A stretch of 64,000 bases of DNA, taken from contig QOQW01000013.1 of NCBI GenBank assembly GCA_003327425.1, positions 61,351-125,350 of the forward strand. Reading direction: 5' to 3'. The notes below the pieces were generated by a model. The model saw only the letters and a program-made list of their open reading frames with translations, ran no database searches and was not told the origin of the DNA. The stretch comes from Candidatus Ozemobacter sibiricus (GTDB lineage: Bacteria; Muiribacteriota; Ozemobacteria; Ozemobacterales; Ozemobacteraceae). How positions within the stretch are numbered: position 1 is the stretch's first letter; each line of letters begins with the position of its first letter. Shown piece by piece: positions 3,530 to 35,074 of the stretch. The position numbers and the translations under genes are program-made.

Positions 3530-6500
3530 TCACTGGCACCGCACGAGGCTGACCCGCGGTTCGGACGGATTGCCGGCCTGGTCGTAGACGATCAGCGAGA
3601 GCAGATGCAGGCTGCCGCGCTCGAGCGGAGCGGGCGGCATCACGGTCAGGTGCAGGCCGGTGCCGTCGGCGGCCACCTGCTCGGGCGAGATCGCGATCGG
3701 GCGACCATCGAGGGTCAGCACCAGCCGGGACAGGTCGATGCCGCTGTCGTCGTCGTGGAAGGCAGCGCTGACCCGGATGGCCATCGGCGGCACCGAGTCG
3801 TCGGTCTCGGGCGACAGCCGGGTGATGACCGGCGGCACCGTATCATCAGAGACCCGCAGGTCGATGACCTGGTCGGCAGTACGATGCCCCTGCCGATCGG
3901 CGACCGAGACGACGACCGTGCGGAAGCCCGCCGCCAGCGGCCCGGTCACGGCGAGGGGCACCTCGAGCCGGGCGACGCGACGGCCGGCCGGGTCTTCCCA
4001 ATGCCAGCGATAGCCGTCGAGGGCCGGCGTGGCCGGGTCGTCGGGCCAGACGCGCCGGCCGTCGATGGTCACCCGGGGCGAGGCCTCGTCGAGCCCGGCC
4101 CCGCCGGGGTCGATCCAGCGCATGACGAGGCGCTCGATGCGCGTGCTGATCACCGCGCGCGGCGGCGGCAGGGCCGAGGCCAGCACCGGCGGCCAGGTAT
4201 CGGGCCGGCAGAAGAAGGTGGTGACGGCCTCGGCCGAACGGTTGCCGGCCCGGTCGAAGACGACCAGGCTGACCAGGTGCTGCTGGTCGGGATCGAGATC
4301 GATGGCGGGGGTCCAGGTCAGAAGACCGGTCGCCGCCTCGAAGGTCAGCTCGGCCTGATCGACCCGCTCGCCGTTGCAGAACAACCGGATGTTCTCCTTG
4401 GCCAGCCCGCTGCCGCCGGTATCGGTCAGGCGGGCGCGCACCACCGGCCGGCGGTCGGTGACGACGGTCTGATCGGCCGGTTCGAGGCTGGCGATGTCCG
4501 GCGGCCGGGTGTCGAGCACCACCTTGAACTTGACGGTGGGCGAGCGCACCGGGTTCCCCTGCTTGTCGCACGCCTCGAACGAGTATGAGTACCAGGCCGT
4601 CTTCTCGTCGAGCGGCTGCACGGGGCTGAACATCACCTGGCCGGTCAGCGGGTTGTACAAGACGACATCGCGCTGGTAGCTCCACCAGTCCCAGTCTTCG
4701 CCGCTGCGGCCGGGAATGTAGTAGGTGACCTGATTGGCCACCTTCTGTCCGTTGAGCCAGAAGCTGATGGTGGTCGGATCGATGCCGGCCTCGGCATCGA
4801 ACAGGCGGCAACTGATCAGGGGATTGGCGGCATAGACCGTCTGCCCGTCGGCCGGCTCGAGGTCGGTGATCTGGGGCGGGCGCCGATCGCGGAAGGGGAT
4901 CTCCTGGCCGGCGGCGTTCCGACCCGGCGGCAGCTTGACCTCGAAGCTGACCGCTCCCGGCGGCGCGGCATTGCCCGCCTGGTCGTAGGCATAGAAGATG
5001 GCGATATGGACGCCTTCCCCCAAAGAGGTGCGCGGCGTGAAGGTGACCCGCCCGGTGACCGGGTCGTAGCTGTCAACCTCGGTGGTCACCTCGTCGATCT
5101 TGAGGCGGATGCCGGCGGTGGCCACGTCGCCTGGGCTGCAGACGATCACCGCCGACAGCTCGGGCAGGCCGGTGGCCAGGCGGGCGCCGTTGGGCGGAGA
5201 AACCTTGGTGATCTGGGGGGCCACGCGGTCGACCATGAGCTGCCCGCGGCGCGCTACCGAGGGCGTGCCATCGAGGTACTCGGCCTCCAGCAGGTAGCGG
5301 TAGGTGCCGTCGGGCAGCGGTTGCCCGCGATCGTCGTTGCCATCCCAAGGCTCGTTGTACAAAGCCGTCCGCACTTCGACGCGATCGAGCAACGTGCGCA
5401 CCGGCTGTCCGCCGCGATCGAAGATCTTCAGCGAGACGAGGCCCGGTTCGGTGACCTGGAAGGTGATGACGGCGGTGTCTTCGATGCCGTCGCCGTTGGG
5501 CGAGAAGACGGCCGGCAAGGCGAAGACCTCCTGGCAGAGGCCGGCGTCGAGCCGCACCTGCTGGCTGATCTGCAGCAGCTCGACATCTTCGATGGCGGCG
5601 AAGACGCGCAGAGTATAGAACCCGTTGCCGACCACATCCTGCCGGTCGTTCTTGCCATCCCAGACCAGGGTGGCCGGCCCGGCCGGGTAGGGAACCCCTT
5701 CGAGCAGGCGGCGCACGACCCGGCCCTGACGGTCGATCACCTCGGCGCGCAGGCGGGCCGGCCGCTCCAGGCGCCAGGCGCAGGTCAGCACGTCGTCGAG
5801 CCCGTCGGCGTCGGGGGTGACCACCGCCGGCTCGCACCGCACCTCCTGCACGATCAGATGGCGCAGCTCGACGTCGAGCGCCGCGCTGGCCGCGGCGCCG
5901 GTCGCGGTTCCGCCCGGGGCGACCGCGGGCAGGCCGATGCGGGTCTCGGGGAAGTAGCCGGGCCGGCTGAACCGCAGATCGAAGGTGCCGGGGGTCAGCC
6001 CGGCGAGCCGGAAGGCGCCGCTGGCGTCGGTCAGGGCGGTGACCGTGGTATCGAGCGCGGTCACCAGCACATCGCCGGCGGTGGTGCGGTTCTGCAACTG
6101 GACCCGCCCGGCCAGCTCGCGATCGGGCTGCCTCGCCACGTGGATCCGGCACTCGCGGGGCGCCGCCGCATGCCCGCCGAAATCGGTCATGGTGGCGCGA
6201 CAGACGTAGGTGCCGTCGGGCACGCGCTGCCCGCGATCGTCGGTCAGATCCCACAGGGTGCGGAAGGTGTTGTTCGAGAATTCGACGTCGGTGGCCAGCC
6301 GGCGGACGACCCGCCCCTGCCCATCGAGAATGAGCACGCTGGCCAGACCGTTCTCACTGGCCCGCAGCGTGATCAGGCTGCGGTCGGCGGCGCCCGCCCC
6401 CAGCGGGTCGGGGCCGTCGTCGAGGCCGGTGATGACCGGCGGGGTCTGGTCGATCATCAGGGCGTAGACCGAGAAGCTGTTCGAGCGGGCGACCGCTTCG

Positions 6501-9500
6501 CCGGTCTGCGGATCGATCGCGGTGCGCAGCGGCACCCAGGCCTGGCTCTCGGCATCCCAGCGTTTGACCACCACCGAGCGGGAACTGATTCCCCCCAGCA
6601 GCTTCTCATCGAAGGCGAAGCGCATCTCGGCCAATGGGGTGAACTTCGTCCCTTCGGGGCCGAAATCGATGGCATGGCCGCCCACCACGGCGTCGCCCGT
6701 CACCCCCGAAGCGATGGCGATCGGCTGCGCCGATACGGCGAGCGGCCCGCCCACCGCCCCGTGCGGAATCACCACCTGGCCGGCCACCCCGGGGCTGGCC
6801 GTGAACGAGGCGGCTCCGCCCGCCGCGGTCACGGTCTGGGTCGGCACCGCGATGCGGAACGCCCCGATCCCCGAGCTGGCGCCGTACCTGGCCCCGACGT
6901 CAGGGAAGGCGGGTGAATCGCACCGCACGCGGAAGTACCAGACGCCGTTGCCGAGCCGATGGTTCAGCTTGGCGGCCTGCTCTGCTTCCGACAGCACCTT
7001 CCCGAAGTCGAATTCGAGCAGGGTGCCGTGCGGAATGGGAATCTCGCGCGCCCCGACGAACTCGATATTGTCGGCGTAGAGCAGGGTGAACTTGAGCTGC
7101 CGATCATCCTCGCCGCCCAGCAGCCCATTGGCATGCCAGCTGATGCGCGGGGCGGCGGTGGTCAGCACCGGCAGCGTCGAGCGCGGCGTCTCGAGCCGGA
7201 TGACCGGCACCAGGCCCAGCGCCAGGAAATCGGACAACTGATCGGCGAACAGCTCGGCCATGACGCTGACCGGCATGTACTTCGGCGAGACGGCATTGAG
7301 AGCGTACGAGCGCAAGTTGGTCAGGAACAGGCTGCCGTAGGTCTCGAACAGCCGCCACATCATCAGCGACCAGGCCAACTCGCAGTTGAGGCCGCGGCCG
7401 GGCTTGTCCTGCAGCTCGTCGAGCCAGCCGTAGGTACCCGAAGCGTCGGCCTCGAGCGTCACCTTCTCGGCATACGAGCGGTAGAGGGCCAGGGGATCGA
7501 GCGGGCGGCGATCGGCGGTCTGCACGTGCGGCAGGGTGGCCGCGCCGCGCACGGCGTAGCTGAAGAAGGTATCCCAGCCCTGGTACCAGGCATCGCGCAG
7601 GCCCAGCGGCGTGCTGCTGTGCCGCTGGTCGAGGCGATACTGGGTAATGCCGGGTTCGAGCTTCTCGAAGATGCGATGGCGAACGAACGCGCCGTAGGCC
7701 CGGAAGAACAGATCGTCGTGCCAGACGTCGGTCCGGTCGACATGCACGCCCAGGCAGGGCGCTCCGCGCTCGGCCTTGTACAAACCATAGTGCGGATAGC
7801 TGACCGGGCGATCACCATGCGCCGGCGAGAAGGGGTAGTAGATCAAGGCGCCGCTGATGTCGACCACCCGGCTGGGCTCGCGCCGCACCGTGCTGCGCCG
7901 CGGCGCGGCCAGGGCCAGGGAGACGGCGGTCTCGACCCGGCGGGCGGCGGCCTGGCGGGCGGCCGCGTCTTCCTCCAGGCGCGCCACCGCTTCTTCGCGG
8001 GCGAGGCGCTCGCGGTACCACGGATCGAACTCCTCAGCCACCTCTTCTTCTTCCGCCGGCGGCTCGACCAGCACTTTCATCTTGGGCGACAGGGGCGTCG
8101 TTTCATAGAAAGCTGGCGGCGGCGGCAGATGCACCCCCATATCGACCGACGAGGGCTCGGCCAGGCCTGACAGGCGACCCCACGGGCTCTGCCCGCGATG
8201 GAGGAAGGCGACCTCGCCGGCTTCCCGCCGGGCGGCCAGGATGTCGCCATCGGGCGTGACATGGAAGGCGGCCAGGCCGGCCAGGGAAACTGGCGGCGGG
8301 GCGGCAGGCGCGCCGAGAGAACCGAGCCCGGCCCCCGAGCCAGGCCCGGCCCCAATCCCGGACCCTGGCCCCGACGGGCCGCCAGGGCGGGCCGCGCCGG
8401 GCACCACCTCCTTCCGGCGCTCACCGTCTTCGCCGAAGCAGAGCAGGCGGCCGCTCTTCTCGCCGACCCACCATTCATCGCTGCCGGCCCGTCGATACAG
8501 ACAGACCGGCTCGCGCAGCCCGTCGGCTTCGCCGAATCGCCGCACGATCTCGCCAGCAGGCGTCACTTCGAGCACCTGCCCCACCGCGCCGTCGAGCACC
8601 AGCGTATGCCCATTGCCGAGGCGCTCGGCGGCCAGCGGCATCTGCACCGGGCTCGAGGCAGCCAGCGTGTCCCCGCCCCACGACCAGATCATGGTCAGAT
8701 CGGTCGTCAGCTCGAGCACGCGCCGGTTGCCGGTGTCGGCCACCAGAATGGTCGGTCCTTCGGCCACGCTCAGCGAGCGCGGGTCACGCAGGCCCGTGAC
8801 CAGACCGTCATCGTCAGGGAACCAATCGGCCGCGGCCTTGACCTGCCCCTCGCGCCCGACCACCAGCATCCGCCGGCGACCGGCATCGAGGATGGCCACC
8901 TCCTCGCCCGGCAGGAAGCGCGCCCCGACCGGCCGGAACGCCTTGTCGTCGGGCGCGTAGGCCCAGTGCTGGCCTTGATCGAGCGTGTAGAGGGCGCGTA
9001 CGCGGGCGGCCCCGGCCTCGGCGATCAACGTCAGACTGCGCGGCCGTTTCTCCTTGGCCGGCGGGGGCGGCGGCACGTTCTCGTCGACCGGCGGGGCGGG
9101 CGGCGGCGGCACCACGGGCGGCGGCCCTGGCGGCGGCGGCTCGCCGTAGACGATGTCGCTGGGCGGGTCCGGCGGCGGCGGGGGCTCGAACGTGCTGGTC
9201 AGGATGGGAATGAACGTACCCTCGGTGGCGAAGCTCGGAATACGCTCGAAGACCCGGATCATCTCGTTGGCGAAGGAATGGGCCTGCACCGCCAGGTCGA
9301 GCAGGTAGAGGGCTTCGGTGCGATTGTGCCAGTAGATGCCGGGCGTGGTGCCGACCACCCCGCTCATCGCAGGATTGCGCACGTTGACCAGATTGCCTTG
9401 CAGGGTGAAAGCGGCGGCGGCATCCATGCCTTCCTGCAGGCGGATGCCGAAGGGGCTGATGAAGCCTCCGGTGCTGAGTTCCCCTTCCCAGGTGATGAGG

Positions 9501-12500
9501 ATGCCCTTCTCGGACCTGGGCCCGCCACCGGCGTAATGGTGATAGGGAATGATCTGATGGGGGGCTTGGTAGACGGTCTGCCCGATCACCTCGCCTTCGA
9601 GGTCGGCTCCCTCTTCGGGAGCGCTGAGGCGGAAGGCCTCGGTGATGCACCGGTACGGCCGTTTGCTGGGCGGGCAGGCGACGGCGGCGATGGCCCGCCG
9701 CACCTCGCGGGCGAGCGGAGTCGGGGCGGCGGGGGCAGCACCGGCCGCGGTGCCGGCCGCGCCGGCCGGCTGGCCTCCGCCCGCGCCCCCCGCCGCTGGA
9801 CCGGTCGGCGGCGCGATCACCTCGCGCACCGTCTCGACGGCCATGGCGTCGGCCACCAGTCGGATGCGCAGCTCGCTCTGGTTGACCAGTTGCACGGGGA
9901 TCCGGTAGAACCCGTTGTCATCGCGGATCTCTCCATACCCGACGAACTGCTCGACGAACTTGGGCATGTCGCCGCCGAAGGTCGGCATTTTGTAGATCTG
10001 GCTGATACGGATCTGGGTGCCGCGCGGCACGGGCCGGGTGCCGGTCTTGCGCCCTGCGGCATCGGCCGTCTCATAGGCGAGGGTGCCCTGCACGACGGTG
10101 GGCCGGGCCGCACCCTCGGCTTGCAGAACCACCGGCACGTTCAGCCGCCGTTCTGTCCACCCTTCGTTCGCCGAAGCGCCGCCAGAGCGGTATCGCAAGG
10201 TGTAGTGCAGGTCCCAGGTTCGGTTCTCTTTCACAAGGCCGACCTGGAATTTCTCTTTCTGCTGGCTCTGCTTCACCCCGACCCGGAAGTCGCCCCGCGC
10301 ATCGGCCCGGGTCTTCCCCTCGACCCCCCGGATGACGATCTTCGGTTCGGTGGCGAGCCTGGTGAGCGGCGCCCCGGCCGGCAGCGGGTGGGGCGTGATC
10401 TCGATATCCGAGATCTCCATGAAGCTGAAGTTGGTGGCGGTGAAGCCAAGATCGAAGGTTTCGCTGCTGGTGAAGGCGATCTTGGCCGGATGGAACGTCG
10501 GCGTGACTCTCAGATCCTGGTAGGAATCGCCAATGAAGAACGTGTGATCGACCCCCATGGCCAGGCCCGCGCCATTGGTGGCCCGCACGGTCAGAATGTA
10601 CAGACCTTCGGGCAGGTCTTTCGGCCCCTGGAAGGTCACCTCGGCCTTGGCGAACGATTCGTCTTTGGCCGAGCTGAACGCCCCCTCGATCCCCTTCCAG
10701 GCGACGCGTTCGGGGTCGTTGCCCCGATAGAGGAACCGCCGATCAGGGTTGTCGGCGGACGAGATGCAGAAGATCAGGTCTTTCTTGCGCACCCGGCTGA
10801 TCGAGTCGCCCACTTCGACCTTGACCTCGAACCCCTGCCCGGCCTTGGCAGCCGGCCGGTCGCTGGGCGGGGAGCGCACTACGACAGTGGGCGGGTCGGG
10901 ATCGTAGCGCAATTTGAAGGTCTTCTCGACGACATTGGAGGCATGCCCGGCCCGGTCGCGGATCCAGCCTTTGATGGTGTGCACCTTGGTCTCCGAGGTG
11001 GGCGGCGGCGGCGGCAGGACGACCTGGACCAGCCCCTGTTTATGCTTGGTTTCCTGGAAATAGTACTCTTCGTAGATTTGCGGAATGAAGCGGAAGGCGG
11101 GCAGGCGCGGGTCGTGGACGAGACGCTTGCCGTCGAGGGCGAACCACCACATCAGCGGGTCGGGGTTGAGCCCGGCATTGGCATCGGAAGCGATGAAGGT
11201 CAGCGGCACCGGCCGATCGTGGTAGAAGAGCATCTCGGCCGGGTCGTCGCTCTGCCAGGCCAGTTCGGGGTCGTCCAGATCCCATTTGCTGATGATGCGG
11301 GCGATGCTCTTGCAGATGCGGCCGAGGCGGCCCAGGTTCTTCTTCCCGACCTTCTTCTCGAGCCACTTGTAGGGCTTGTTGAGCCATTCCTCGTACTTCT
11401 CGTTGATCGAGTATTTCTTGATGAACTTCTGCATCTTCTCGCCGCCCCACAGCTCTTCGAGCTTGTCGAACTTCTTCTGGATCGTCTTGACGAACTCGTT
11501 GAACTGCTCGAAATCGACGAGATCGCGGGCGAAATTGGCCCCCATCGCGGCGAGGGCATCTTGCAGCTCTTTCAACTGGGCGTCGTCGGGCGAGGGCAGG
11601 ACGAAGCTGCCTCCCATCTTGTCGCGGAAGATCGCGTCGAACCTGGCGATGTCCAATCCTTTGATGGCCGAGAGGGCGGCGGCGCAGCGGGCCGGCAAAT
11701 GGCCGAACCCGCCGGTCAGGAAGTTGGTGATCGAGACCTTGAGGTTGTCGATCTCTTCGACGGTCGCCCCCCCGGTGATGATCAGCTTGCGGATGGTGGC
11801 GATGTCGTCCATGCGCGCTTCGAGGGCCTTCTTCAGCTCCAGGAAGCCTTCGGCCACCTGATCGAGCTTTTTGGCCTCCTCGAGGATCCCCTCGAACTGC
11901 TGCTTCTTCTCCTCGTAGTAGTCGCACAGCTTTTCGGCGTCTTCCCAGGCCTTCTCGACCTTGTCGATCCAGGCCGAGGCCTTTTCAGGCGTGAGGTCGA
12001 TGTCGCCGAACACCTTGCTGCCCAGTTCCCGGCCTTTCTTGATCAGATCGGCGATATCCTGGGCGGTCGCGGCCCGCCGGATCATCTGATTGCGGGCCTC
12101 GTAGGTCTCGCCGATCTCCTTCTTGAGGGCCGCGATCTCTTTGTCGATGGCTTGGATCTGCTGCGACAGGTCATCGCGCCGGCGGTTCTCCCCCTCGAGA
12201 TCCTGCGAGGATTCGTCGGCGGCTTCGGCTTTGCGCTCGAGCCGCTCGATATCGCGCCGCACCGCGGCCATCTCGGCTTCGAGGTCCTGGACAGCCGACT
12301 GGGCCTGCCGCAAGCCGAGCTTCTCTTCCTCGACCCGGCGTTTTTCTCGCTGGGCCTTGGCCAGCTCGGCCTCGAGCTGCCGACGGGCCTCGTGGTCGCG
12401 GGCGATTTCCTCGGGAGTGCGGGCGGCCAGCGGCCGGTTGTTCAGCTCATCGAGCCGGGCCTGCGCGGCGGTGAGGCGATCCAGCGCGGCTTCTTCGCGG

Positions 12501-25100: not shown

Positions 25101-28100
25101 GCCTGGCGCCGCCGCGGGCGGGGTGCGGTCGGTGTCGACCGTCACCGGCGGCGACCAGGGCCCCTGGTTGCCGGCCGCATCGAGGAAGGCGAGGCGGTAT
25201 TCCCAGGCGCCCTCGGTGGGCGGCTGATCGACATGGGCGAGCTGGTCGACCCGCGTCAGCCGGGCGACTTCCGAGGCGGGGCCGCCGGGCGCCGCCCGTC
25301 CCAGCACGTACCCGGCCACCCCGGCCTCGGCCGGCGGCGCCGCCCACCCCACCTCGACCCGGCCCTGATCGCGGGCCTGGGCGATCGGCGGAGCGCGCGG
25401 CGCCGGAGGCGGCACGGTGTCGACGGTGAACGGCACGGGCGGCGCCGCGGTCCCATCGGCGCCGGTGGCTTCGAGCCGGGCCGGCCCCTGCGGGGCCCCG
25501 GCTGCGATGCTCAGCTCGCCAGACCAGGTCTGCGGGCCGGCTGCCTGCAGGGCGATCTCCTCGCGCCGCCCGTCGGCCCAGACCACCGTCAGCCGCGGCG
25601 GGCCGACCGCCGGGCCGCTGACCAGCACGCGCTGCCGCCCCGCTCCCAGCGCCCCCGTCCGCTCGAGGAGGATGGTCAGCCGGGCGGTCTGCAGCCGGGT
25701 CGTGCCGATCACGAAGGAGGTCTCGGCAGCGGCAGCCACCGGCTGGCCCCGCCGATCCTGCACGAATTCCGGCGCGAAGCGCACGGTCACGGTTTCCCCA
25801 TCGGCGAACGGACGCTCCGGCCGCAGCACCAGGGCATACCCATCGGGCTCGGCCGCCGCCTGACACGGCACCGCGCCGCTCTGGCTGCCTCGCACCTCGA
25901 TCCCGCCCGGGCGATAGGAAGCGGCCTCGATCATTCGCGTGAAATTCAGGCGAATGGTCGTGGTCGGATGCACACCCATCTGCCCCGACCAGGGCTGCAC
26001 GCCCGTCAGCCGCAACGGCCATCGATCGGCCCCAGCCGGGAAGGTGGCGACCAGCGAGTAGGCACCGACAGCGCCCACCCCATCGGCAGCCGAGACCCGG
26101 ATCTGATACTGGCCGGCGGGCAGGGTCAGACGCTGCCGTTCGGGGAACCCGGGCCCGCCCCCACAGGTGGAATCGATCGCGATTCCGCGCTGGCGCGGCA
26201 GATCGAGCAGGGCGAAGACCTTCCAGAGCAGGGCGTCCTGGGCCTTCCCGCCAGGATTCTGCATATCGACGGCCAGCGTCCCCTGGCCCCAGCGCCGGAA
26301 GACCGTCAAGGCCCGCGTCGTCGTCGCCGCCTGGTGCAGCACCACCGGCGCGAACCCGGCCGCCGCCCAGTCTTCGATCCAGCCGCTGGCATCAAGCCAC
26401 GGCAGCCCCTGCAACGGGCCGCCGGTCGGATCAGGCATCCCCGCCGCCGCGATGGCGGCCGGCACGGCCTGATTGGCCTCCCAGAGCTGGCAGAGACGCA
26501 GCCCGAACCAGCGCTTCTCGGAATCGGCGGTCAGCGCCTCGATCTCGCCGAGCTGCACTTCGCTGCCGTGCCCGTAATTCGAGGTGACCACCACTCGCAG
26601 CGCCCGCAGTGCGGTCGGCATGATCGGAATCACATGCGGGCCATCGGCCGCCGGCAGCGTCAGGCTGGCCAGCAGCGTGAACGGGCCATGCTCGCCAACC
26701 GTCGAGCCGTACAACTGCACATCTCGGGCCCGGGCCTCGCGCGTCTGGGACGTCGCATGCACCACCAGCCGATCGATCGGCCCCGGCACTCTGTCAGGGA
26801 AGACCAGGACGATCTCCTGCGGAGTCGCCACGCCGCCCGAGACGCAGCACCAGCCGCGCGCCCCATTGTAATGCTCGTTGCCGGCCATGCTCAGGCCGTC
26901 GATCAGGCGGTCAGGCTTCCAGGTATCGCTATACTGACTGGTGAAACTGGCGACCCGACCGCCACGCGCCTGGCGCAATTCGCTGAACGACACCGACGGC
27001 GCGGTCAGCAGCACCCGGCCCCCACCCTCGACATACTTCTGGATCTTCGCCTGCACGGCGTTCGAGAACAGATCGAACTGGTCGGGATCGGTCACCCCAT
27101 CGATGATGACCGCCACGTAGTCATCGAGGCCATCCCAGACGGTGGCGGCCCGCGACGCGGTCCAGGTCACCCGCTCGACCTCGAAAGGCAGGCCGATCCG
27201 CTCGTGGAGGTTGTGGAAGTCGGCCAGGCCTCCGACCAGATACAGCACCCGGGCCCGCCCGCCCCGCGTCGGATGTTCCGGAATGACATGCACCTGCGCA
27301 TCGAGATCTTCGGTCCCGACCGGATCCAAGGTCAGATCGAGGGTGCCCGTGCCCATCTCGACCACGAAATGATCGACATCGCCGTCAGGAAACACGCCGC
27401 CGGTCACCGGCACCCCGCTCTCCAGGCGGACCGCATCGCCGGGGCGGTCGTCGGGCTCATGCTGCACCGGCAAGGGAACGCGTTGCAGGGCCAACCGATA
27501 GGGAACGGTCGCCTGGTTCGGCGGGAAGGCATCGGCCACCCCCAGCCAGTACAGCCCGGTCGTGGTGGCCAGGGAATGACCGGCTTCGACCCCACCGAAG
27601 CCGACACGGCGCGAGCCGTCGAACGTTCGCGGCAAAGCCTGCTCATCGGCTTGGGATTTCACCGACAGCGAAGGATCGAGCGTGTAGGTCAGGGGCTCCA
27701 GCCACAGCCCGAGCCGGGTGGGCCGGTCGACCGCCACCCGCCACCAATCACGATCGCCGGCCGGGAACAGCTCGCCCTCGACGGTATCGCCGACCGGCAG
27801 CGGCACCGCCGCGCCGGGCGTCTGGTTGGGCTCGGCCGTGGACGTGGCCGCCCAGAAGGTCGGTCGCAGCACGAATGGCGCCGACGCCCACCGCCCTTCG
27901 GCCGCGGGCCGCACGGTCAGGCGATACCGACCGGCGGCCGACGCCCGGAACCATCCCCCGCCGCGCAGCGTCTGCAACTGGGCAGGGGGTACATCAAGGA
28001 GGTTGGCGATCTTCCAGGCGGCGGGCCGGACATTGTCGCGATACCCCAGCTCCTGCGTTTCCAGGATCAGGGTTCCCCGGCCCAAGGTTCGGCGCACCGT

Positions 28101-31100
28101 AATGCCGAGCTGCTCGGGATCGGCCGCATCGACGTAGGCCGCGGTGAAGCCGGCCTCCCGCCACCCCACCCAGCACCCGTTGCTCTCCGAGACCGGCCAG
28201 CCATTGGGATTGCCCCGCGCCCGCCCTGAAACGAGAGGGTCGCTGTCGCTGACCGCCTGCACGGTGTCATTGCGCCATTGCGACTGGTGGAAGACCCCGA
28301 ACCATCCGGTCGGTGCATCGGGGCCATAGAACTCGCAGTCGCCCAGCCGGACCGCCTGGTTGCCGACGCTGGCCAGCACGGTCAGGCGAACGAACCGCGC
28401 CGCCACCGCCGGGAAGCGGGCTTCGGTCATCCGGCGCCCGGGCCTCGCCTCGAACTCGCCCACCGGCTGGAACGGCCCGTCGGGCCCGGCCATCGTTACC
28501 TCGACCCGGAACCGGCGCACCTGCGCCGCCGGGTCGGGGCTCGCCGTCTGCACCACGATCCGATCGAGCACCACCGGCCAGCTGCCGGGCAGGCCGAACA
28601 CCACCGCGTGCGGCGGCGGCGCGCCGGCATAGGCCCCCTGCGAACCTTCGATCTCATAGCGCCCATCGAGCAGCTCCGGCAATCCGGTCCACGCCGGGCT
28701 GCCAGAGGCGATCCAGCCACCCCGGACGGCCGCGTTCAGTGCGAACGTGAAGAATTGAGGACAGACCACGACCACCCGCTTGCCCTGCTCGACCAGCGCT
28801 TGCAGCGCTCGATGGGTCTCGGGACGGTCGAGGAAGAACTGGCAGGGATGCGTGATCCCCTCGATGATGATGGTGTCGAACCGAGCAGCTTGCGAAGCCG
28901 CCCAGGAGACGGCGGGGGACGTCAGCACCGGCAGCCGCAGGGTCTGGGTGCCGGTCCAGGCTTCGAAGTCGACCGCGCCCAGCAAAACGTTCCATGAGGT
29001 TTCGAGTTCGACCAGCAGCGGCGCCCCCGCCGCCAGATCGGGCACCGGCCACGCCCAGTCGCTCCATTCCTCCCATGAGCGCAGTCGCCAGCCGGTCACC
29101 GCCTCCCCGTTCACCTTCACTTTCAGAGAGCGCTCATCGAGCGAAAGACCGCGCATGATCAACCGCCCTTCGCGAGTGGCGACGGGAACGGTCAGACGCG
29201 CCGACCAGGTGGCGCCGACCGGCGGCGGGAAGTCCCGCCGAGGAGAAGCGCCGAGATGCAGGCACGATTGCAACCAGAGCGGTGCATCTTCTTGCAGGCG
29301 CAGCGAGACCAGATGCTCGTTGGGCACCGCGAACAGATCGTAATCGCGCCGGCCGCCGACCAGACACAGCACCCGGCTCGGAGAAGCGACCTGCTCATGC
29401 CAGGTCAAAGCCAGATCGAGCCGATCGGGCGTGCCCCCTTCCAGGCCCAGCAAGCCGGCCCCCGGAACATCGATGGTGTACGCGGCCCATGCTCCTGCCG
29501 GCACCAACGGCGACGACAGCGGCGTCGCCACATCGACCACCGGCTCCGACGTCGTGGCGACGGTCGGTTGCCACCTGGCCCAGGCCGCCGCCAGCCAGTC
29601 GGGGGGCCCAGCGGCCTCCGGCTTCGCCCCGGCCTCGGCCACCGACCACTGCACGCCCGGGCCCGACCAGGCATGCAGACGGAAGACGGCTTGCAACGGC
29701 GCGCGGGCCGCCCGGTCGCCGCCCGACCGCACGACCGCATAGTATCGTGCTCGCCGGGGGAGCACCACCCGGCCCGCCTCGCGCGAGCGATTCGTCTGGT
29801 CGCAAACCTTCAGCGGCGCGGCCGCCGCATCCGTGCCGGCCTCCCTGATCTCGACGATGGGGTCGGTGTGGCCGTCGAGGGCGGTCAGATCGAGTTCGAG
29901 CAGCCCCGGCCCGATGTCGCCCAGGTCGATCCATTCACGATCGCCCTCGGGGTAGAGATGGAAAGCGAAGCTGGCGGGCAGGCTCACCGTGCGGGCCTGC
30001 GTGGCCGCCGCGTGGTCGAACGAAGGCAGGCCGACCGTCGCCGTTTCGGGCCAAAGCCCAACGGTACGCACGATCGCCTGGTAGGGCGTCATCGACTCGG
30101 CATTGTGGAATTGGTAGCCATAGCCGTTCTCGTTGATCCCATGGCCGCCATCCATGACCCGGAAGACGAACGACGCCGGTGCCTGCACCGTGAAACGCCC
30201 CACCAGAGGATCGTCGACCGGCGCGGTGAAGGTCTCGATGGGGTTGCCGTTGGCATCGAGCACCTCGAGCCGGGGGGCCACGGGCCCGGCCAGATCGGGA
30301 ATCTCGATCTCGAGCATGGTCGGACCGCTTCCTGGCACCTCGACCCGGAAATGATCGATATCTCCCGCCGGGAAGATGGTGTCGGCCACGGGCTGGCCCA
30401 ACGTCACCAGGAACGCCTGATCAGGACTGCCATGGGGAGCGGTCGGGGTGACGACGGGCGTATAGGTCACCCGCAGGGAATACGGCCCCGCCCGGTTGTT
30501 GTAGTGATAACTGTAGTTTTGCTCACCGGTTCCGGTTCCCCCATCAATCACTTCGAGCCAGTAGCGGCCGGGCTCTTTGAGCGACGCTTCGAGCCTGACC
30601 ACATTGCTTTCGGGCCCCATGGCCGAGCCGATCTCCTGTTGCTGGGGATTGAACAGGCGCAACCGGGGGCAGGTCGGGCCCAGAACGGCATCGCATTCGA
30701 TCTGCAGCCGCCCCCGGCCCGGCGTGGGCACTTCGAAGGTGAACCAGTCGTTGTCGCCAACCGGGAAGAGGTGCGCCATCATACGTTCGCCCAAGGTCAG
30801 CGACGTCGCCGAAGCCATGGTGTCGTTGGGCTCGCCCGGATCGGGCACCTCCTCGAACCGCACGAACCCTCGATATTCGAGCGGGGAACAGACGTTGTTG
30901 TAGTGGTAGGCGTAGCCCTGCTCCCCTTTCCCGCGCCCGCCGTCGATGACCCGCAGCCGGTAGGCGCCCGAAGCCACCGCCGCCACGAGCACTCCGGGCT
31001 CGCCCCGCGGATGATCGGCCGCTTCGAGATCGCGGCCGCTTTCGTCGCGCAACAGCAGATGAAGGGCGATCATTTCCGAGGGGTGGTCGACGCGAATCGT

Positions 31101-31748
31101 GACCCACCCTCGTTTCCCGGCCGGAATGGTGAAGCGGTACCAATCCTCGTCAGCCGTGGGGACCAGTCGCCCCGTGAAGGCGCGGTTCAGCTCGATCGGG
31201 CTGGCCGCGTCTGGCGACCCATTTGGCTCGTGCTCATCGGGCAGGGGGGTAACCTTCACGGTCAAACGATAGGGGGCCGTGGCCTCCTGGTTGTTGTAGT
31301 GATAGGCGTATCCTGCTTCGCCGATCCCGTGCGGGCCATCCTGCAAAAGAATGGTGAGACTGGCCGGGTCGCCGAGCCAGGCTCGATACCAGAACGGCTG
31401 CCCCGGCGGCGCTTCGTGGGTGAAAATGGTCTGGCCTTTGGCATCGTACCCGACAAGGCGGGGGTTGATATTGGAAGCCACTTCGTCGGCAGTCACCTCG
31501 ACGGCGATCGGCACCCCGTTGCCCGGGACGGGAATGCGGTAGTAATCGTGATCTCCGACGGGGAAGATCGTTCCGATGATGGGAACGCCCGAAGCGACCA
31601 CCGCGGCCTTTTCGAGAGCGTCGTTCGGCTCGAACTGGTCGGGGGCAGCTGGCAGCGGGCCACACAGGCCACCGACCAGCGCCAACAGCAGGCCCAGGAA
31701 CAGCCGCAGTCCCTGTCTGGCAACCATTCCCATGACTCGTCGCCGCAT
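16176..31748 (-). CDS. giant multidomain surface protein (~5190 aa): signal peptide, 7 PPC (pre-peptidase C-terminal)-like domains, two [GATase1/ThuA-like + F5/8 type C discoidin + ~90-aa] modules, long array of fibronectin type III domains, three C-terminal bacterial Ig-like domains and a C-terminal transmembrane anchor
   Basis: Five tandem repeats starting at residue ~48 have EPND...G.IFP.GD.D.Y.F.VP ... DGG.G.GE.GY.YHYNN...PY.L.V signatures (e.g. FEPNDALEKAAVVASGVPIIGTIFPVGDHDYYRIPVP, GEPNDTMASATSLTLGERMMAHLFPVGDNDWFTFEVP), with two more at residues ~1315-1500. The discoidin-type endings are ARFVRLTVLASVGNQAVRLGDCEFYG and ALRVVVTSNYGHGSEVQLGEIEA. There are many fn3-like units (PPAAAPGNLAATRRGGTVTLRWEPVAEADVAGYEVFR...). 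The C-terminal Ig-like repeats are homologous to those of the 3453-aa protein. The last residues ALIWWSTLIGMLVAAAYCLWW form a TM helix. The ATG at 31748 (MRRRVMGMVARQGLRLFLGLLLALVGG, signal peptide) is preferred over the TTG at 31781; ATG 31733 is also possible. Confidence 0.85.
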   Translation of the reverse strand: MRRRVMGMVARQGLRLFLGLLLALVGGLCGPLPAAPDQFEPNDALEKAAVVASGVPIIGTIFPVGDHDYYRIPVPGNGVPIAVEVTADEVASNINPRLVGYDAKGQTIFTHEAPPGQPFWYRAWLGDPASLTILLQDGPHGIGEAGYAYHYNNQEATAPYRLTVKVTPLPDEHEPNGSPDAASPIELNRAFTGRLVPTADEDWYRFTIPAGKRGWVTIRVDHPSEMIALHLLLRDESGRDLEAADHPRGEPGVLVAAVASGAYRLRVIDGGRGKGEQGYAYHYNNVCSPLEYRGFVRFEEVPDPGEPNDTMASATSLTLGERMMAHLFPVGDNDWFTFEVPTPGRGRLQIECDAVLGPTCPRLRLFNPQQQEIGSAMGPESNVVRLEASLKEPGRYWLEVIDGGTGTGEQNYSYHYNNRAGPYSLRVTYTPVVTPTAPHGSPDQAFLVTLGQPVADTIFPAGDIDHFRVEVPGSGPTMLEIEIPDLAGPVAPRLEVLDANGNPIETFTAPVDDPLVGRFTVQAPASFVFRVMDGGHGINENGYGYQFHNAESMTPYQAIVRTVGLWPETATVGLPSFDHAAATQARTVSLPASFAFHLYPEGDREWIDLGDIGPGLLELDLTALDGHTDPIVEIREAGTDAAAAPLKVCDQTNRSREAGRVVLPRRARYYAVVRSGGDRAARAPLQAVFRLHAWSGPGVQWSVAEAGAKPEAAGPPDWLAAAWARWQPTVATTSEPVVDVATPLSSPLVPAGAWAAYTIDVPGAGLLGLEGGTPDRLDLALTWHEQVASPSRVLCLVGGRRDYDLFAVPNEHLVSLRLQEDAPLWLQSCLHLGASPRRDFPPPVGATWSARLTVPVATREGRLIMRGLSLDERSLKVKVNGEAVTGWRLRSWEEWSDWAWPVPDLAAGAPLLVELETSWNVLLGAVDFEAWTGTQTLRLPVLTSPAVSWAASQAARFDTIIIEGITHPCQFFLDRPETHRALQALVEQGKRVVVVCPQFFTFALNAAVRGGWIASGSPAWTGLPELLDGRYEIEGSQGAYAGAPPPHAVVFGLPGSWPVVLDRIVVQTASPDPAAQVRRFRVEVTMAGPDGPFQPVGEFEARPGRRMTEARFPAVAARFVRLTVLASVGNQAVRLGDCEFYGPDAPTGWFGVFHQSQWRNDTVQAVSDSDPLVSGRARGNPNGWPVSESNGCWVGWREAGFTAAYVDAADPEQLGITVRRTLGRGTLILETQELGYRDNVRPAAWKIANLLDVPPAQLQTLRGGGWFRASAAGRYRLTVRPAAEGRWASAPFVLRPTFWAATSTAEPNQTPGAAVPLPVGDTVEGELFPAGDRDWWRVAVDRPTRLGLWLEPLTYTLDPSLSVKSQADEQALPRTFDGSRRVGFGGVEAGHSLATTTGLYWLGVADAFPPNQATVPYRLALQRVPLPVQHEPDDRPGDAVRLESGVPVTGGVFPDGDVDHFVVEMGTGTLDLTLDPVGTEDLDAQVHVIPEHPTRGGRARVLYLVGGLADFHNLHERIGLPFEVERVTWTASRAATVWDGLDDYVAVIIDGVTDPDQFDLFSNAVQAKIQKYVEGGGRVLLTAPSVSFSELRQARGGRVASFTSQYSDTWKPDRLIDGLSMAGNEHYNGARGWCCVSGGVATPQEIVLVFPDRVPGPIDRLVVHATSQTREARARDVQLYGSTVGEHGPFTLLASLTLPAADGPHVIPIMPTALRALRVVVTSNYGHGSEVQLGEIEALTADSEKRWFGLRLCQLWEANQAVPAAIAAAGMPDPTGGPLQGLPWLDASGWIEDWAAAGFAPVVLHQAATTTRALTVFRRWGQGTLAVDMQNPGGKAQDALLWKVFALLDLPRQRGIAIDSTCGGGPGFPERQRLTLPAGQYQIRVSAADGVGAVGAYSLVATFPAGADRWPLRLTGVQPWSGQMGVHPTTTIRLNFTRMIEAASYRPGGIEVRGSQSGAVPCQAAAEPDGYALVLRPERPFADGETVTVRFAPEFVQDRRGQPVAAAAETSFVIGTTRLQTARLTILLERTGALGAGRQRVLVSGPAVGPPRLTVVWADGRREEIALQAAGPQTWSGELSIAAGAPQGPARLEATGADGTAAPPVPFTVDTVPPPAPRAPPIAQARDQGRVEVGWAAPPAEAGVAGYVLGRAAPGGPASEVARLTRVDQLAHVDQPPTEGAWEYRLAFLDAAGNQGPWSPPVTVDTDRTPPAAAPGNLAATRRGGTVTLRWEPVAEADVAGYEVFRTPAGQELPVGARPLTTVSASVRRADDAPGDGVYDYRVAARDRAGNRGPLATTRIVVDTTPARAALVIADLRPEPLPPVPATAPVEGRLPPGAFTVLATLSERLAGPPSLTLVLADGSTATGAVEWASGSLFFTAAFRVPATAADGFLQFRGEAIDLEGNAGLTLHYSSYVLDTASPTWKIWRDPPHASAIGTVTVFVQADEPLPEAPRLTWTPPGGQPQVLASLTFDYRNNAWRGVLFLATDTPDGEVTFAVTGRDLFGREGTRIREGERFFKDGVPPGPPLDLVVGPGPGGGILLRWKPPLEESPAFYSVYRGASDAVPQTPAARLATEVRDVQYHDREALGSEFAYRVSATDLAGNEGVACQPRTGSSDTTPPPPPEEVKATLLPGGQVRIAWQKPRLEAVDRYRVVREARLRDGRRQLDQIYEGPLREVDDLPRLTGDLVYAVHALDAAANESPPARTATLSYDLTPPVAKIRFAPTFGRRMIPIYGLMSVTWRDLGEVVRPGRLSLTLEFDEPVRDDVGLTWRLEADEVPRPVPLTRRGPTLFEGSLDLPSHLGADLDVRFGLQAADLAGNAAGPLGAEAELLLDSTPPAPLNRLTAVPGPGGVVRVTWAPPATEPEGEPRYLVFRSERPFTASESAQLVAADLKDAAFTDRPPRDGTWYYAATARDRAGHIGSLTPAVAVVTDAVPPAAPTGVEVKVGATVELTWVPGAGTVGGGSAPAAAAVAPLAGQPAGEPVTWRVLASPEPIPAGAGSTTPGVTLIADGLTEPRCSFVPQPWPAIHLAVVAVDAAGNVSDSPAIAPLTIGAKIPAARVRVEPPGPARGACRVRVETTVPLREPPSLWFEPAGRAPLAVALTLEAGSKSRFTGALAVDEKTGDGVGRFLFRGLSEEGLPGTVITEGATLTVDTTPPWLSLAFDPPAPLRTGPVTVRVTPNELLAAPPEVLIAPQGGSPLPVALQPLAAAPPAPAGAGEGAAPLVYVGSFTLPATLPDGQAFLRVSARDLAGNVGTRADPDRVFIDNHPPRPPIDLRAVARPHGRVFLTWQPAPFQARSGPDDVRRWRIYRADRPGVATAAAVRAGEAVGPAFEDGGIPRDGTWYFAVTAVDQAGWESLPSSWVAGLADRRPPPVPAAPTAVPGDEGVTLTWHDPAPAAGTPPDRYEVWVSWHDPVTRQTVEEKVWGPATGGRALHRPLRGGDFSYRVRALDHLDHASAFSPPTLVHYERQAPAATLAFRPPPPWATGSVAVTLETTRALAATPQLTWQWFDDLGEPGASATAIVLQGSGTTWQGRFVLPEAPSLRRIDFAWRGQVTVAGKTYTGTEFLGPASFAIDRAGPEGRLLFTAPDLPRRDRQAILRAGRYPFVLELDEPPARPPTLAFESASGKRVNLPLTRQTDRRWEGVLLIDGATGDGVGQFFLQAVDAAGNQGTSLAEGGTVVVDTTPPGRVARLRAVAFPGGRVRLDWTPPLTATGRPDASANRFRLYRSSQEILDVRGLTPIQSVARTLGTFDEPKGAREVYYAVVAVDEAGNEGPVSLSVMTTIDREPPPPPRHVKAAITETGVVKVSWEPPPGPAPTFYNVYLETFPIVSTAGLTPNARGVPFTYLYGTPNDDGRYYFAVTAVDATLNESAPSESVEVDYRRTLPIASFTIHPDIWLRNGRYEVDLTTSKPLVEPPLVEVKHEKGLVFPLRFAGAGSRWRATLTIDDQLPEGTCGFLFTGKGEGNTVGREISRGPLFHIDRTAPLPPSHLKVVPDDANTPGAVRLTWNLPKLPDRPTEVPHLYRIYRSERPMASLAGQAPVQVVRVQYENMDEYIHHDVPPHDGTWYYCVTSGDLAGNESSPSAVVSVVSSTKVPRLVVRLFTEVGGPVPVDRIGGGPCRVEVRSSQPLASLTLHWYEVTRDEKLAGVVASRTAVPMTERAGGPASEAGLLWEGRLVIDQAAGREVEAAFEARAVGRDGTVGTFITAGRTFWIDTVGPEARIRIPSINTMRIDALANQVVVAPVRGGPIEVTVETLGELAQPPELAWAIDGRDDWQPITLRGFGAFWSGWMEIPHGIASASARFRYRGVDRIGNVSTAIEPRKYERKLDEEGEIARTLESYATTGGVFTIDSVPPEPPIGLQVEQKKLGIAVIKWTEGPGDPRSFNLYRSLTPITTREGLIPVKTGIYAPIIVDDPPVDGNWFYAVTQLDLAGNESEVSETKSIFIDSIKPELKITAVPSGDDFIILADEEAPPEMRIELRFPGGKTMEVDLGGSSGQLQEIQMPGGGPPRRGRVLPQILRQFDGRVEIVVHSPDPAGNEVQQLTSLEAKPVAVETGGRVESADQLVQLEIPAGLVPVVPKGPGEFQRVGGYQNLFFIRYENIPDRPRPAAATAPVDPREPDPLPPSLEVIGTPYRIELNVNTEKPLSLKAGATQADLSQLKELAPKLRLKVPELGSEAVADVDYLASRLKVVKWVPATRDEAEGRTPTGKRGRWEIVEDIEISTGTGEIIAPARDITTYVVVSERTPPTICDLSPAPDSTVKTFRPVIQARLIDKGTGIAQGAENPIALHIDGMPADRAHLKLSTEDPTEVTLTYTPPADLTPGAHIVTLRVQDVVENESVRRWRFVIDNEPPRITSVLPASGTALGVGRPVISVVAADEGGGIDPERTHLTLDGASLTVRFDPVAGRLVAHPPRRLPSGVHRVQVQLEDRGGKKVAQTWDFRTDVEPPEIRLVQPAPGRALDRIDQPLILGVQDRGTGLDPRRLLLDLDGHLLGPSRDLEVTDVFSYDPVLGQVRVQPAGGFRPGPHRVLLCAEDRFGHVQVAVATFAVDVTPPQVTWRAPGPDWQVPAGAVTLQVQEESPGLQIQTAVPYRYDPWSGMLVLLPPATAAGSLEVTLVDAAGFTAVSRIDPTSGKFSVKRGRLLAWWQALIWWSTLIGMLVAAAYCLWWRPPFPPFAARLKP

Positions 31749-31897
31749 CGAAGGACCCTTTGTGAAATCAGACTGCGCCAAACATCATCACGAAGCCCTG
31801 AATGCCATCCCAGCGATGGCCTCGGTACTATCGCGCTTATTTTCGCCCGAAAAGCGCCTCAATGCAATAGCGGGTCCCAGCCGACCGGGCCCCCCCT

Positions 31898-34472: not shown

Positions 34473-35074
34473 CGGAGTCCTCCCAGGTTCATCAACCCGA
34501 TGTGGCCAAGGAATTGGAACTCGTTCCGATCTTGAACCACGGTCACATTCACCTGCACGGAATTTGGCGACAGACTGGTGAAGGAGAGAGAGCGCACCGA
34601 TTCGAGCAGGACCTTCTCGTTGGACGCATTGTACGCCCCGGAATAATCGGTACGATAGGCCAGCAGGCGATACACCGGAACCTTCAGCCGTTGGGCCAGA
34701 GGATCGTTCGGCTCGAGGTAGAGGATGGTCACCCGATTGGTGATGTCTTTGAAAATCAAGTAGGGAAGGGTTTCCCCCAGCACGGGGCGAACGAGGTCGG
34801 TGCCCTCGCGAATGAGGGCCATGGTCTGGTCGAAGGCGCGACGGGCTTCCAATTGCAACTGGACCTGCTGGCTGAACGTCCGTTGGGAGAGGCTGAGATG
34901 CTGGATCAATCGAACCCCCACCGCCCCCAGGATCATCATGATGGCCAGCCCCACCATGACCTCCACCAGGGTCCAGCCCTGGGAAGGAGGTAGGTTGCAG
35001 CCCAAGGGCCGCCTTTCATGCCCATGCGCCCAAGACCAGAGAAGCGAGCGCTGAGACCACGGCGGCCGCTTCAT
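34469..35074 (-). CDS. prepilin-type N-terminal cleavage/methylation domain protein (type II secretion / type IV pilus pseudopilin-like)
   Basis: The SQG|WTLVEVMVGLAIMMILGAVGV segment fits the prepilin peptidase site (G at -1, E at +5) followed by a hydrophobic helix. The ATGA overlap with the upstream gene is at 35071-35074. Confidence 0.6.
   Translation of the reverse strand: MKRPPWSQRSLLWSWAHGHERRPLGCNLPPSQGWTLVEVMVGLAIMMILGAVGVRLIQHLSLSQRTFSQQVQLQLEARRAFDQTMALIREGTDLVRPVLGETLPYLIFKDITNRVTILYLEPNDPLAQRLKVPVYRLLAYRTDYSGAYNASNEKVLLESVRSLSFTSLSPNSVQVNVTVVQDRNEFQFLGHIGLMNLGGLR

Follow-up and report, generated by a model that had tools for sequence, protein, structure and literature searches.

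A giant-TPR-giant operon specific to the Ozemibacteraceae that may encode one cell-envelope or cell-surface fibre complex

Introduction

What might an uncultured groundwater bacterium build from two proteins of several thousand residues, encoded on either side of a gene for a tetratricopeptide repeat (TPR) protein, and do the three products belong together? We address this question for Candidatus Ozemobacter (Ozemibacter) sibiricus (phylum Rifleibacteriota, family Ozemibacteraceae), using a 64,000-nt stretch of contig QOQW01000013.1 (the window). Three minus-strand open reading frames (ORFs) are present there, at 16176..31781 (5201 codons), 13888..16530 (maximal extent, 880 codons) and 3530..13891 (3453 codons); we refer to them as giant 1, the TPR gene and giant 2, and to the three together as the trio. 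An initial annotation of the sequence had read them as a translationally coupled operon for a dedicated fibrillar assembly of the envelope or the extracellular space. We find that the three-gene operon is specific to the Ozemibacteraceae (Rifleibacteriota) lineage, and we lean slightly towards the view that its products form one co-assembled cell-envelope or cell-surface fibre complex. The fibrillar idea itself is plausible, and derives from domain composition only.

Results

A word-indexed search of 5.8 billion proteins returned three relatives of the TPR protein, and an exhaustive HMMER profile search of 1.84 billion representative proteins returned four clusters of true family members, the remaining ~90 matches being generic TPR proteins aligned over short stretches only. 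Scans of genome and metagenome collections with the TPR profile added only two loci, L005, which is identical to L003, and the short L008. The family was not found outside the giant-TPR-giant context, and the order giant, TPR, giant is kept in L002, L003, L004, L006, L007 and L008 as far as each contig extends. The proposal that the three genes form a conserved unit is thus borne out in all six related contigs, which hold the following.

L002, TPR protein 91% identical to that of the window: upstream giant, TPR gene and start of the downstream gene
L003 (= L005, from an Ozemobacteraceae metagenome-assembled genome, MAG), TPR identity 80%: upstream giant, TPR gene and 1133 amino acids (aa) of the downstream gene
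L004, TPR identity 52%: upstream giant and TPR gene
L006, TPR identity ~32%: upstream giant, TPR gene and 483 aa of the downstream gene
L007, TPR identity ~31%: upstream giant, TPR gene and a complete downstream giant of 3143 aa with the same Pfam set
L008 (short): end of the TPR gene and start of giant 2

Both giants are collinear with their orthologues in L007, giant 1 at 44% identity over 3330 residues and giant 2, against the complete 3143-aa protein, at 39% identity over 3343 residues. The collinear orthologues come from five other samples. Within the window the genes are delimited as follows.

16176..31748 (minus strand): giant 1 gene, ~5190 aa from ATG 31748; the maximal ORF begins at TTG 31781, and the deposited ATG 31727 gives 5183 aa (RCK79415.1)
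13888..16005 (minus strand): TPR protein gene, 705 aa from ATG 16005, with alternative starts at 16179, GTG 15951 and ATG 15936 (RCK79414.1)
3530..13891 (minus strand): giant 2 gene, 3453 aa, third-codon-position G+C (GC3) 0.88 (RCK79413.1)

ORFs of this size in a MAG invite the suspicion that they are artefacts, arising from repeats that collapsed, from chimeric contigs or, in a genome of high GC, as shadow ORFs. The window has a G+C content of ~70%, and long spurious ORFs crowd both of its strands; antisense to the giants there are very long ORFs at 8198-13774 (+, 1858 aa), 15270-22148 (+, 2292 aa) and 24516-28229 (+, 1237 aa). None of these three shows the GC3 coding signature; they are shadow ORFs of the kind usual in high-G+C DNA. 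Both giants, in contrast, have the codon-position signature by which real genes are marked in this genome (GC3 0.86 in giant 1 and 0.88 in giant 2, second-position G+C, GC2, ~0.5), and such GC3 values are unique to their frames. Relative to close relatives, substitutions are in excess at third positions in all three genes; in giant 1, for example, third positions dominate with 93/80/428 substitutions by codon position over 3332 codons. Strong purifying selection acts on giant 1, the TPR gene and giant 2. Furthermore, a self-BLAST of 3400-32000 found no DNA repeat >38 bp, so the giant ORFs are not artefacts of collapsed repeats. Identical proteins are on record from two contigs (70.9 kb and 159.5 kb), and the exact 3453-aa giant 2 is found on contig DYEH01000053.1 of GCA_020725785.1. 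Together with the collinear orthologues, these observations leave an artefact with hardly any probability. The three ORFs therefore stand at the coordinates first given for them and are real genes, and the collapsed repeats, frameshifts and loss of synteny by which the initial annotation had said its arrangement could fail were not encountered.

The trio has been deposited for this organism on the 159.5-kb contig under names that suggest unrelated functions: RCK79415.1 is a 'Fibronectin type 3 domain protein', RCK79414.1 (the TPR protein) 'DNA polymerase III subunits gamma and tau', and RCK79413.1 (giant 2) 'Exonuclease SbcC'. The last two names are probably misannotations driven by composition. 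Pfam and NCBIfam searches found no DnaX or SbcC domain in the TPR protein or giant 2; the gamma/tau name probably arose because of an Ala/Pro-rich insert, and the SbcC name because of a coiled coil. Such names would mislead metabolic or replication inventories of the phylum. Pfam, NCBIfam and motif scans found no catalytic domain and no HExxH motif in any of the three proteins.

Are the three genes also coupled in translation? The initial annotation had them chained by start/stop overlaps with no intergenic space, and ATGA tetranucleotides do occur at 16179-16176 (giant 1/TPR) and 13891-13888 (TPR/giant 2). The two junctions fared differently.

13888..13904 (minus strand): Shine-Dalgarno (SD) sequence and overlap leading from the TPR gene to giant 2, with AGGAGGG at 13904-13898, a 7-nt spacer (counted from AGGAGG) and ATGA at 13891-13888
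16006..16175 (minus strand): giant 1/TPR spacer, open in the TPR frame from ATG 16179-16177, which overlaps TGA 16178-16176

At the second junction, an SD sequence followed by an (A/G)TGA overlap recurs in six loci (the window, L002, L003, L006 as GTGA, L007 and L008), and from this pattern we take the start/stop coupling of the TPR gene to giant 2 to be real and conserved. At the first junction, the two most distant loci, L006 and L007, are the instructive ones: both of their junctions overlap, and their TPR gene begins right at the stop of giant 1, after a GGAGG box, and runs straight into the signal peptide. Because of this arrangement we regard the double overlap as the ancestral state.

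In the window, however, ~170 nt of unconstrained sequence resembling non-coding DNA separates the first two genes, and the absence of intergenic space that had been claimed is probably wrong here. GC3 in the TPR frame is 0.56-0.68 from 16179 to ~16000 and 0.84-0.90 thereafter, and conservation among homologues begins at a hydrophobic, signal-like segment with the motif GQAWVPEAPP. Compared with the 91% relative L002, 35% of the spacer sites differ, evenly by codon position (21/17/20), whereas the adjoining coding DNA shows 11/8/74. The deposited TPR gene starts at 15936 (ATG) or 15951 (GTG, the 687-aa version), not at 16179. The corresponding spacer measures 318 nt in L004, with its own GGGAGG box ahead of the signal peptide, and 426 nt in L003, where it holds a repeat-flanked element resembling a miniature inverted-repeat transposable element (MITE). 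This MITE-like element (L003:8975-9390) carries a ~30-nt unit (CCGGGGACATGATACGAAAT) in three direct copies at one end and in inverted orientation, twice, at the opposite end; its repeat ends are ~300-350 nt apart, and the TPR frame is open throughout.

The spacer frame is free of stops in all four members of the window's sub-lineage, which would fit a translated N-terminal extension. By a dinucleotide-shuffle test, the open frame is unremarkable in the window (P=0.83) and mildly unusual in L003 (P=0.03), with P=0.17 in L004. The idea of an extension is weakened by this result, by the even substitutions over codon positions, by the low GC3 and by the MITE-like insertion in L003. We also considered a regulatory RNA and rejected it, as 16006..16175 has no Rfam match and its RNA fold is not stabler than those of shuffled sequences (z=+0.7). 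The most likely start of the functional TPR protein is ATG 16005 (MGAPAV...KGR...hydrophobic...FGQA); use of 16179 as the start, which would add an unconstrained extension of 58 residues, is a minority possibility that deserves to be kept in mind. Pure coincidence is not an adequate explanation of the ATGA at 16176-16179 in view of the true overlap and immediate signal peptide in L006 and L007. This ATGA is probably a relic of the ancestral overlap kept in the distant relatives, and in the present genome it probably no longer functions. Of the two overlaps initially proposed, therefore, the one between the TPR gene and giant 2 stands and the one between giant 1 and the TPR gene is probably not used in the window.

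The middle protein has two segments that bear on its export and on its deposited name.

15898..15957 (minus strand): signal-peptide-like segment, WPVAVLLMAGLWATAVFGQA followed by the conserved WVPEAPP; the first block conserved in all homologues
14670..14910 (minus strand): Ala/Pro/Gly-rich low-complexity insertion, GC2 0.88-0.94, specific to the window's sub-lineage

The signal-like segment is the very N-terminus of the protein in L006 and L007, and the insertion is missing from P0005, P0006 and P0007 (alignment A3). Single-sequence Pfam TPR matches all remained below the cutoff. A family profile built from seven sequences, however, matched consensus or engineered TPR structures with E=5e-18 and the TPRs of OGT with 3e-12, so that at profile level the middle gene can be said to encode a TPR protein with a signal-like N-terminus, as had been proposed.

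Giant 1 consists of a long series of beta-sandwich domains between a signal-like N-terminus and a C-terminal transmembrane (TM) helix.

31647..31703 (minus strand): hydrophobic core of the signal peptide, residues 27-45 (LFLGLLLALVGGLCGPLPA), Kyte-Doolittle (KD) value 2.04
30138..31568 (minus strand): four beta-sandwich domains of PPC type (pre-peptidase C-terminal) in tandem, residues 72-548
28359..28568 (minus strand): discoidin (F5/8 type C)-like module 1, residues ~1072-1141; PF00754 24.5 bits, 16 bits on a shorter tile
26568..26948 (minus strand): discoidin-like module 2, residues ~1612-1738; PF00754 14.5 bits over profile positions 3-118 of 127
25713..26018 (minus strand): Big_5 Ig-like domain, residues 1922-2023; PF13205 35.4 bits vs cutoff 23.6
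18420..25649 (minus strand): 12 fn3 domains alternating with 12 Ig-like ones (Big_13-type), residues 2045-4454; Pfam above cutoff and iterated self-profiles
17487..18419 (minus strand): membrane-proximal module without known family, residues 4455-4765, the most conserved part of giant 1
16605..17495 (minus strand): three C-terminal Ig-like domains of a family in common with giant 2, residues 4763-5059; Big_13 match
16224..16280 (minus strand): C-terminal TM helix, residues 5168-5186, then a short tail RPPFPPFAARLKP; KD 1.84

The signal-peptide core is preceded by MRRRV...ARQGLR and has no canonical lipobox. The PPC domains score 33.9 bits against PF04151 (cutoff 25.9), a self-profile finds four full copies (E ~1e-36 to 1e-39), and partial further copies lie near residue 1338. 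All three discoidin scores are below the PF00754 gathering cutoff of 28.2 bits, and a homology search with a discoidin module retrieved no homologues; given these sub-threshold matches, the discoidin identity of both segments is plausible. The 'GATase-like' parts of the initial annotation found no support in any search, with no Pfam match at E<=1 in tiles covering residues 560-2020 and no PDB sequence match, and a single-sequence AlphaFold2 (AF2) model of residues 1585-2010 was unusable (mean predicted local distance difference test, pLDDT, 36.5). The rest of its domain description, namely the signal-like N-terminus, PPC, fn3 and Ig-like domains and the C-terminal TM helix, was confirmed.

The fn3 and Ig-like copies are too diverged to show as DNA repeats. 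Residues 4455-4765 are 65% (L007) and 58% (L006) identical vs 44-49% overall, and have no PDB sequence relative at E<=1. The single C-terminal helix with its basic tail is kept in L002, L003, L004, L006 and L007. The last 80 residues of giant 1 contain no LPXTG, PEP or GlyGly motif, and the C-termini of the five orthologues have no such motif in common.

Giant 2 combines a helical N-terminal half with beta-rich domains.

13760..13816 (minus strand): hydrophobic segment near the N-terminus, residues 26-44; KD 2.11 (window) and 2.32 (L003)
13442-13759 (minus strand): Ala/Gly/Pro-rich linker, residues 45-150
12812..13384 (minus strand): conserved helical 'head', residues ~170-360; motif IFDYE.K.KE...YAT.GY..E
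11447..12886 (minus strand): coiled-coil-like region, residues ~336-815 (~480), by heptad and composition scan
8192..9094 (minus strand): NHL-type beta-propeller, residues ~1600-1900, with a proline-rich linker before it
6857..7939 (minus strand): conserved domain of unknown fold, residues 1985-2345; ~50% identity to L007, 71% to P0102
5288..6409 (minus strand): three FlgD-Ig-type domains with CarboxypepD_reg between, residues 2495-2868
3569..5230 (minus strand): five C-terminal Ig-like domains (Big_13, Big_7, Big_5), residues 2888-3441, of a family in common with giant 1 4763-5059

Strong hydrophobicity of the N-terminus is confined to the window and L003, and the segment falls below threshold in L006 and L007; among the orthologues, L006 has a lipobox-like signal, and L007 and L008 have a cleavable-looking signal peptide. 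The N-terminal signal-anchor first described for giant 2 thus fits the window and L003, but is not conserved. The low-complexity linker that follows occurs in the window's sub-lineage and is absent or different in distant orthologues. The head, at 60% identity to L007, is the best-conserved part of the N-terminal half and is also found in L008 (alignment A4); no PDB or Pfam relative of it rose above noise. The coiled coil varies in length among orthologues, with 35-48% gaps vs L007, and low-score matches of giant 2 to SMC, Rad50, LmuB and JetC are typical coiled-coil noise. Between 10000 and 14000 the AT skew is strongly negative (-0.16 to -0.25) and G+C falls to 0.63; both coincide with the minus-strand DNA that encodes the Lys/Glu-rich coiled coil.

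Ig-like domains and the proline-rich linker lie between the coiled coil and the propeller. The latter is supported by phmmer matches to Pizza designed propellers and PknD, a precomputed PF01436 assignment on the orthologue P0102, a weak Pfam NHL match and, for a profile of the giant 2 orthologues, a match to the NHL domain of Thin in two stretches (E=2.4e-11). Residues 1985-2345 have no Pfam or PDB relative (AF2 pLDDT ~30); a homology search with residues 1900-2520 found one Ozemobacteraceae fragment only, and the AF2 model of that segment, from a two-sequence alignment, was unusable (mean pLDDT 36.6). Further towards the C-terminus the Pfam scores are 60.8 bits for FlgD_ig, 54.8 bits for CHU_C and 38.4 bits for CarboxypepD_reg, with 36.8 bits for TIGR04131. 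The Ig-like tail of giant 1 aligns with giant 2 residues 2881-3409 in BLASTP at 23-30% identity (E 1e-15), and one self-profile finds three Ig copies in giant 1 and five in giant 2. The coiled coil, the propeller-like repeats and the Ig family common to both C-terminal regions were all correctly recognized at the outset.

Around the trio, the upstream gene on the same strand (32060-32875) encodes a 4Fe-4S ferredoxin-domain protein. The ~280-nt gap between it and giant 1 contains a strong GC hairpin with a T-run, because of which the trio is probably transcribed from a promoter of its own; scans for promoter and terminator consensus sequences gave chance-level, uninformative results. Further upstream, at 33069-36693 (-), three consecutive genes have prepilin-type N-termini, one with a Pfam N_methyl match, in a stretch of G+C 0.62-0.65 vs 0.70-0.74 that resembles a pseudopilin/minor-pilin cluster. 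On the downstream side, the end of a convergent gene lies 31 nt from that of giant 2. Elsewhere in the window, a 1208-aa SpoIIE-type phosphatase protein is encoded at 41301-44927 (+), a hybrid PAS histidine kinase with a receiver domain at 59234-62053 (-), and a protein with repeated purple-acid-phosphatase-N/fn3 domains at 62204-63886 (-). The part with the lowest G+C, 54000-58000 (0.54-0.58), may be foreign DNA; the ORF at 54479-57157 (-; 892 aa) has a GC3 of 0.63, a weak coding signature, and no Pfam match. Many other ORFs of the window have no Pfam match either, for example 48722-50221, 52982-54424 and 57607-58728.

Discussion

The conserved order, the conserved TPR/giant 2 overlap and the overlap of both junctions in the two most distant loci argue for a dedicated, stoichiometrically co-produced set rather than a random pair of adhesins. 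From the domains and hydrophobic segments we infer an export route, a topology, an association and an adhesive or structural role as follows. The operon would deliver three Sec-exported products in fixed proportions. Giant 1, with type I topology, would be exported by Sec and stay attached through its single C-terminal helix to the cytoplasmic membrane, from which a chain of ~40 beta-sandwich domains would project; its far N-terminal end would carry modules of ligand-binding type (PPC, discoidin-like), and the highly conserved module and three Ig-like domains would lie next to the membrane. In the periplasm, the TPR solenoid could serve both giants as a scaffold or chaperone. Giant 2, exported by a signal peptide, a lipoprotein signal or a signal-anchor depending on lineage, might oligomerise via its ~480-residue coiled-coil stalk and present the NHL propeller and the Ig arrays. 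Candidate contact surfaces would be the shared Ig family and the two modules without a family, giant 1 4455-4765 and the giant 2 head. In favour of co-assembly, these two modules, the best-conserved parts, are the expected anchoring or assembly parts rather than variable binding parts.

A competing view is that the operon encodes two independent giant adhesins that share a promoter, with a TPR protein that is a general periplasmic chaperone or unrelated, and no joint structure. PPC, discoidin-like, fn3, Big_5, Big_13, FlgD_ig, CarboxypepD_reg and NHL domains are indeed the standard repertoire of adhesins and surface proteins, and giant repetitive surface proteins, sometimes encoded by consecutive genes, are well documented (PMC12863079, PMC11573180, 10.1101/2023.11.21.568195). 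However, order and overlaps have been kept though TPR identity is only 31-32%, and the TPR family does not occur apart from the trio in the searches above. Moreover, conservation peaks in modules that are not repeats and lie close to the presumed anchoring ends, rather than in the binding-type modules, and the giants have a specific Ig family in common, at complementary ends. We consider independent adhesins unlikely, though they are the strongest of the alternatives to a joint structure.

Several points weigh against co-assembly in one fibre complex. Translational coupling alone does not prove complex formation. No orthologues were recovered for the N-terminal 1860 residues of giant 1, the putative binding end, and both AF2 predictions, one per giant, were unusable (mean pLDDT ~36). 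The Rifleibacteriota are reported to be diderm Terrabacteria with OmpM-type outer-membrane tethering (10.1101/2021.05.31.446380), and in a diderm an inner-membrane-anchored chain of ~40 domains has no obvious route to the surface. Within the window, no gene for secretion or sorting was recognised beside the trio or elsewhere, and the pseudopilin cluster at 33-37 kb is cut off from it by the ferredoxin gene and the hairpin. In addition, the geometry first envisaged, with one giant anchored by its C-terminus and the other by its N-terminus, cannot be upheld as a general feature, given that the anchor of giant 2 varies. Despite these points, a co-assembled complex remains the reading to which we give slightly better than even weight.

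It would be tempting to go further and see in the trio a new envelope superstructure of the Rifleibacteriota, a periplasm-spanning or outer-membrane-crossing fibre with its own export route, in which giant 1 is rooted in the membrane, oligomeric giant 2 is docked on it through the shared Ig family or the two conserved blank modules, and the TPR protein serves as assembly factor. We regard this as quite improbable. Also improbable is an element of diderm envelope architecture, either a spacer or tether across the periplasm or a canopy resembling an S-layer, in which the coiled coil of giant 2 would set the distance and the Ig/fn3 chains would form a lattice. It would accommodate the membrane anchor and long Ig chain of giant 1, the long coiled coil behind the conserved head of giant 2 and the OmpM-type tethering reported for the lineage, and it has a precedent in a 292-kDa membrane-anchored S-layer protein with 19 Ig-like domains (10.64898/2026.08.21.746120). 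The variable coil, with its 35-48% gaps, is nevertheless a poor fit to a fixed spacer, the distal PPC and discoidin-type modules point to ligand binding and not to a lattice, and the Pfam and NCBIfam searches found no SLH, OmpM-like, beta-barrel or known S-layer domain in the trio, which led us to reject membership of the S-layer or OmpM-type families.

How does a co-produced trio of this kind compare with known systems? The giant-TPR-giant combination was not found as a described system in Pfam, NCBIfam, PADLOC, PDB sequences or the searchable literature. A role in defence was rejected, as the PADLOC models gave coiled-coil noise only. The giant adhesins of type I secretion systems (T1SS), such as LapA, SiiE, MpIBP and the Bap/RTX proteins, have several thousand residues, chains of Ig-like/BIg domains, binding modules at one end and an anchor at the other; they are not known to have an N-terminal Sec signal, end in C-terminal RTX repeats and a T1SS signal, and are encoded next to an ABC/MFP/TolC-type exporter. 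The giants of the trio share the length of thousands of residues, the Ig-like chains and the placement of binding-type modules and anchor at opposite ends. Unlike T1SS adhesins, giant 1 has a Sec-type signal and a C-terminal TM helix, and a TPR gene is coupled to the giants. Assignment to the T1SS RTX adhesins was discarded, with zero RTX nonapeptides (GGxGxDxUx) in the three proteins and no exporter domains in the flanking genes.

TPR proteins are known as scaffolds or chaperones for exported proteins, among them the class II chaperones LcrH/SycD of type III secretion systems (T3SS), the PEP-CTERM-associated PrsT, the N-terminal TPR of Slam and the pilotins PilF/PilW. The middle protein of the trio resembles them as a predicted Sec-exported TPR solenoid encoded beside, and coupled with, presumed large exported clients. 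Yet it scores ~20 bits against the LcrH_SycD, PrsT and TPR_Slam models, whose cutoffs are 105-312, the locus has no T3SS, exosortase or Slam barrel, and the family is confined to four clusters. Sorting systems offer another comparison: giant 2 residues ~2793-2870 match CHU_C (54.8 bits) and TIGR04131 (36.8 bits), as in type B cargo of the type IX secretion system (T9SS). This domain is internal, with ~580 residues and five Ig-like domains after it, and so cannot serve as a C-terminal sorting signal; it also scores as the third FlgD-Ig repeat, and T9SS cargo was dismissed. The same applies to sortase, exosortase and rhombosortase substrates, with no LPXTG, PEP-CTERM or GlyGly-CTERM motif by the TM helix of giant 1.

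Coiled-coil stalk proteins are familiar from tetrabrachion of Staphylothermus and Omp-alpha of Thermotoga, and the spacer or canopy discussed above can be likened to these and to the 'colossal' Ig-domain S-layer proteins of Thermoproteota. One of the Ig-domain S-layer proteins is PySLP of Pyrobaculum, which is membrane-anchored (10.64898/2026.08.21.746120). The anchor and Ig chain of giant 1, and the coiled-coil stalk with beta-rich distal parts of giant 2, recall these structures; the trio differs in the lack of sequence similarity, the diderm bacterial host, the presence of two different giants with a TPR partner, and the variable coil.

Among the closest parallels in layout to giant 1 are the 'dockerin-type' giants of Omnitrophota surveyed by West-Roberts et al. 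In that survey, which covers proteins of >10,000 to >30,000 aa, these have discoidin repeats, an N-terminal bulk that is largely free of TM segments and predicted to lie outside the cell, and C-terminal TM and intracellular parts; a role in attachment is proposed, and pseudopilin/T2SS-like genes (type II secretion system) lie nearby (10.1101/2023.11.21.568195). Giant 1, with its sub-threshold discoidin matches, has a similar layout of putatively extracellular bulk and C-terminal TM helix, and pseudopilin-like genes occur in the neighbourhood of the trio. The giants of that survey are several times larger, and the dockerin-type ones contain dockerin/cohesin-like and glycoside-related domains and belong to another phylum, no giant-TPR-giant trio is described there, and no sequence relationship between the two sets of giants was detected.

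In summary, the trio is a lineage-restricted form of the known theme of giant adhesins and envelope proteins and not a new kind of system; as it stands, its genes suggest a further lineage-specific, giant adhesin-like locus. If the three products do form one structure, they would provide a compact, genetically defined case of a diderm from an uncultured phylum building very long fibres of the envelope or surface without a known secretion or sorting signal, and would add to the known giant adhesin and envelope systems three domains without known relatives, namely the TPR family, the giant 2 head and the membrane-proximal module of giant 1.

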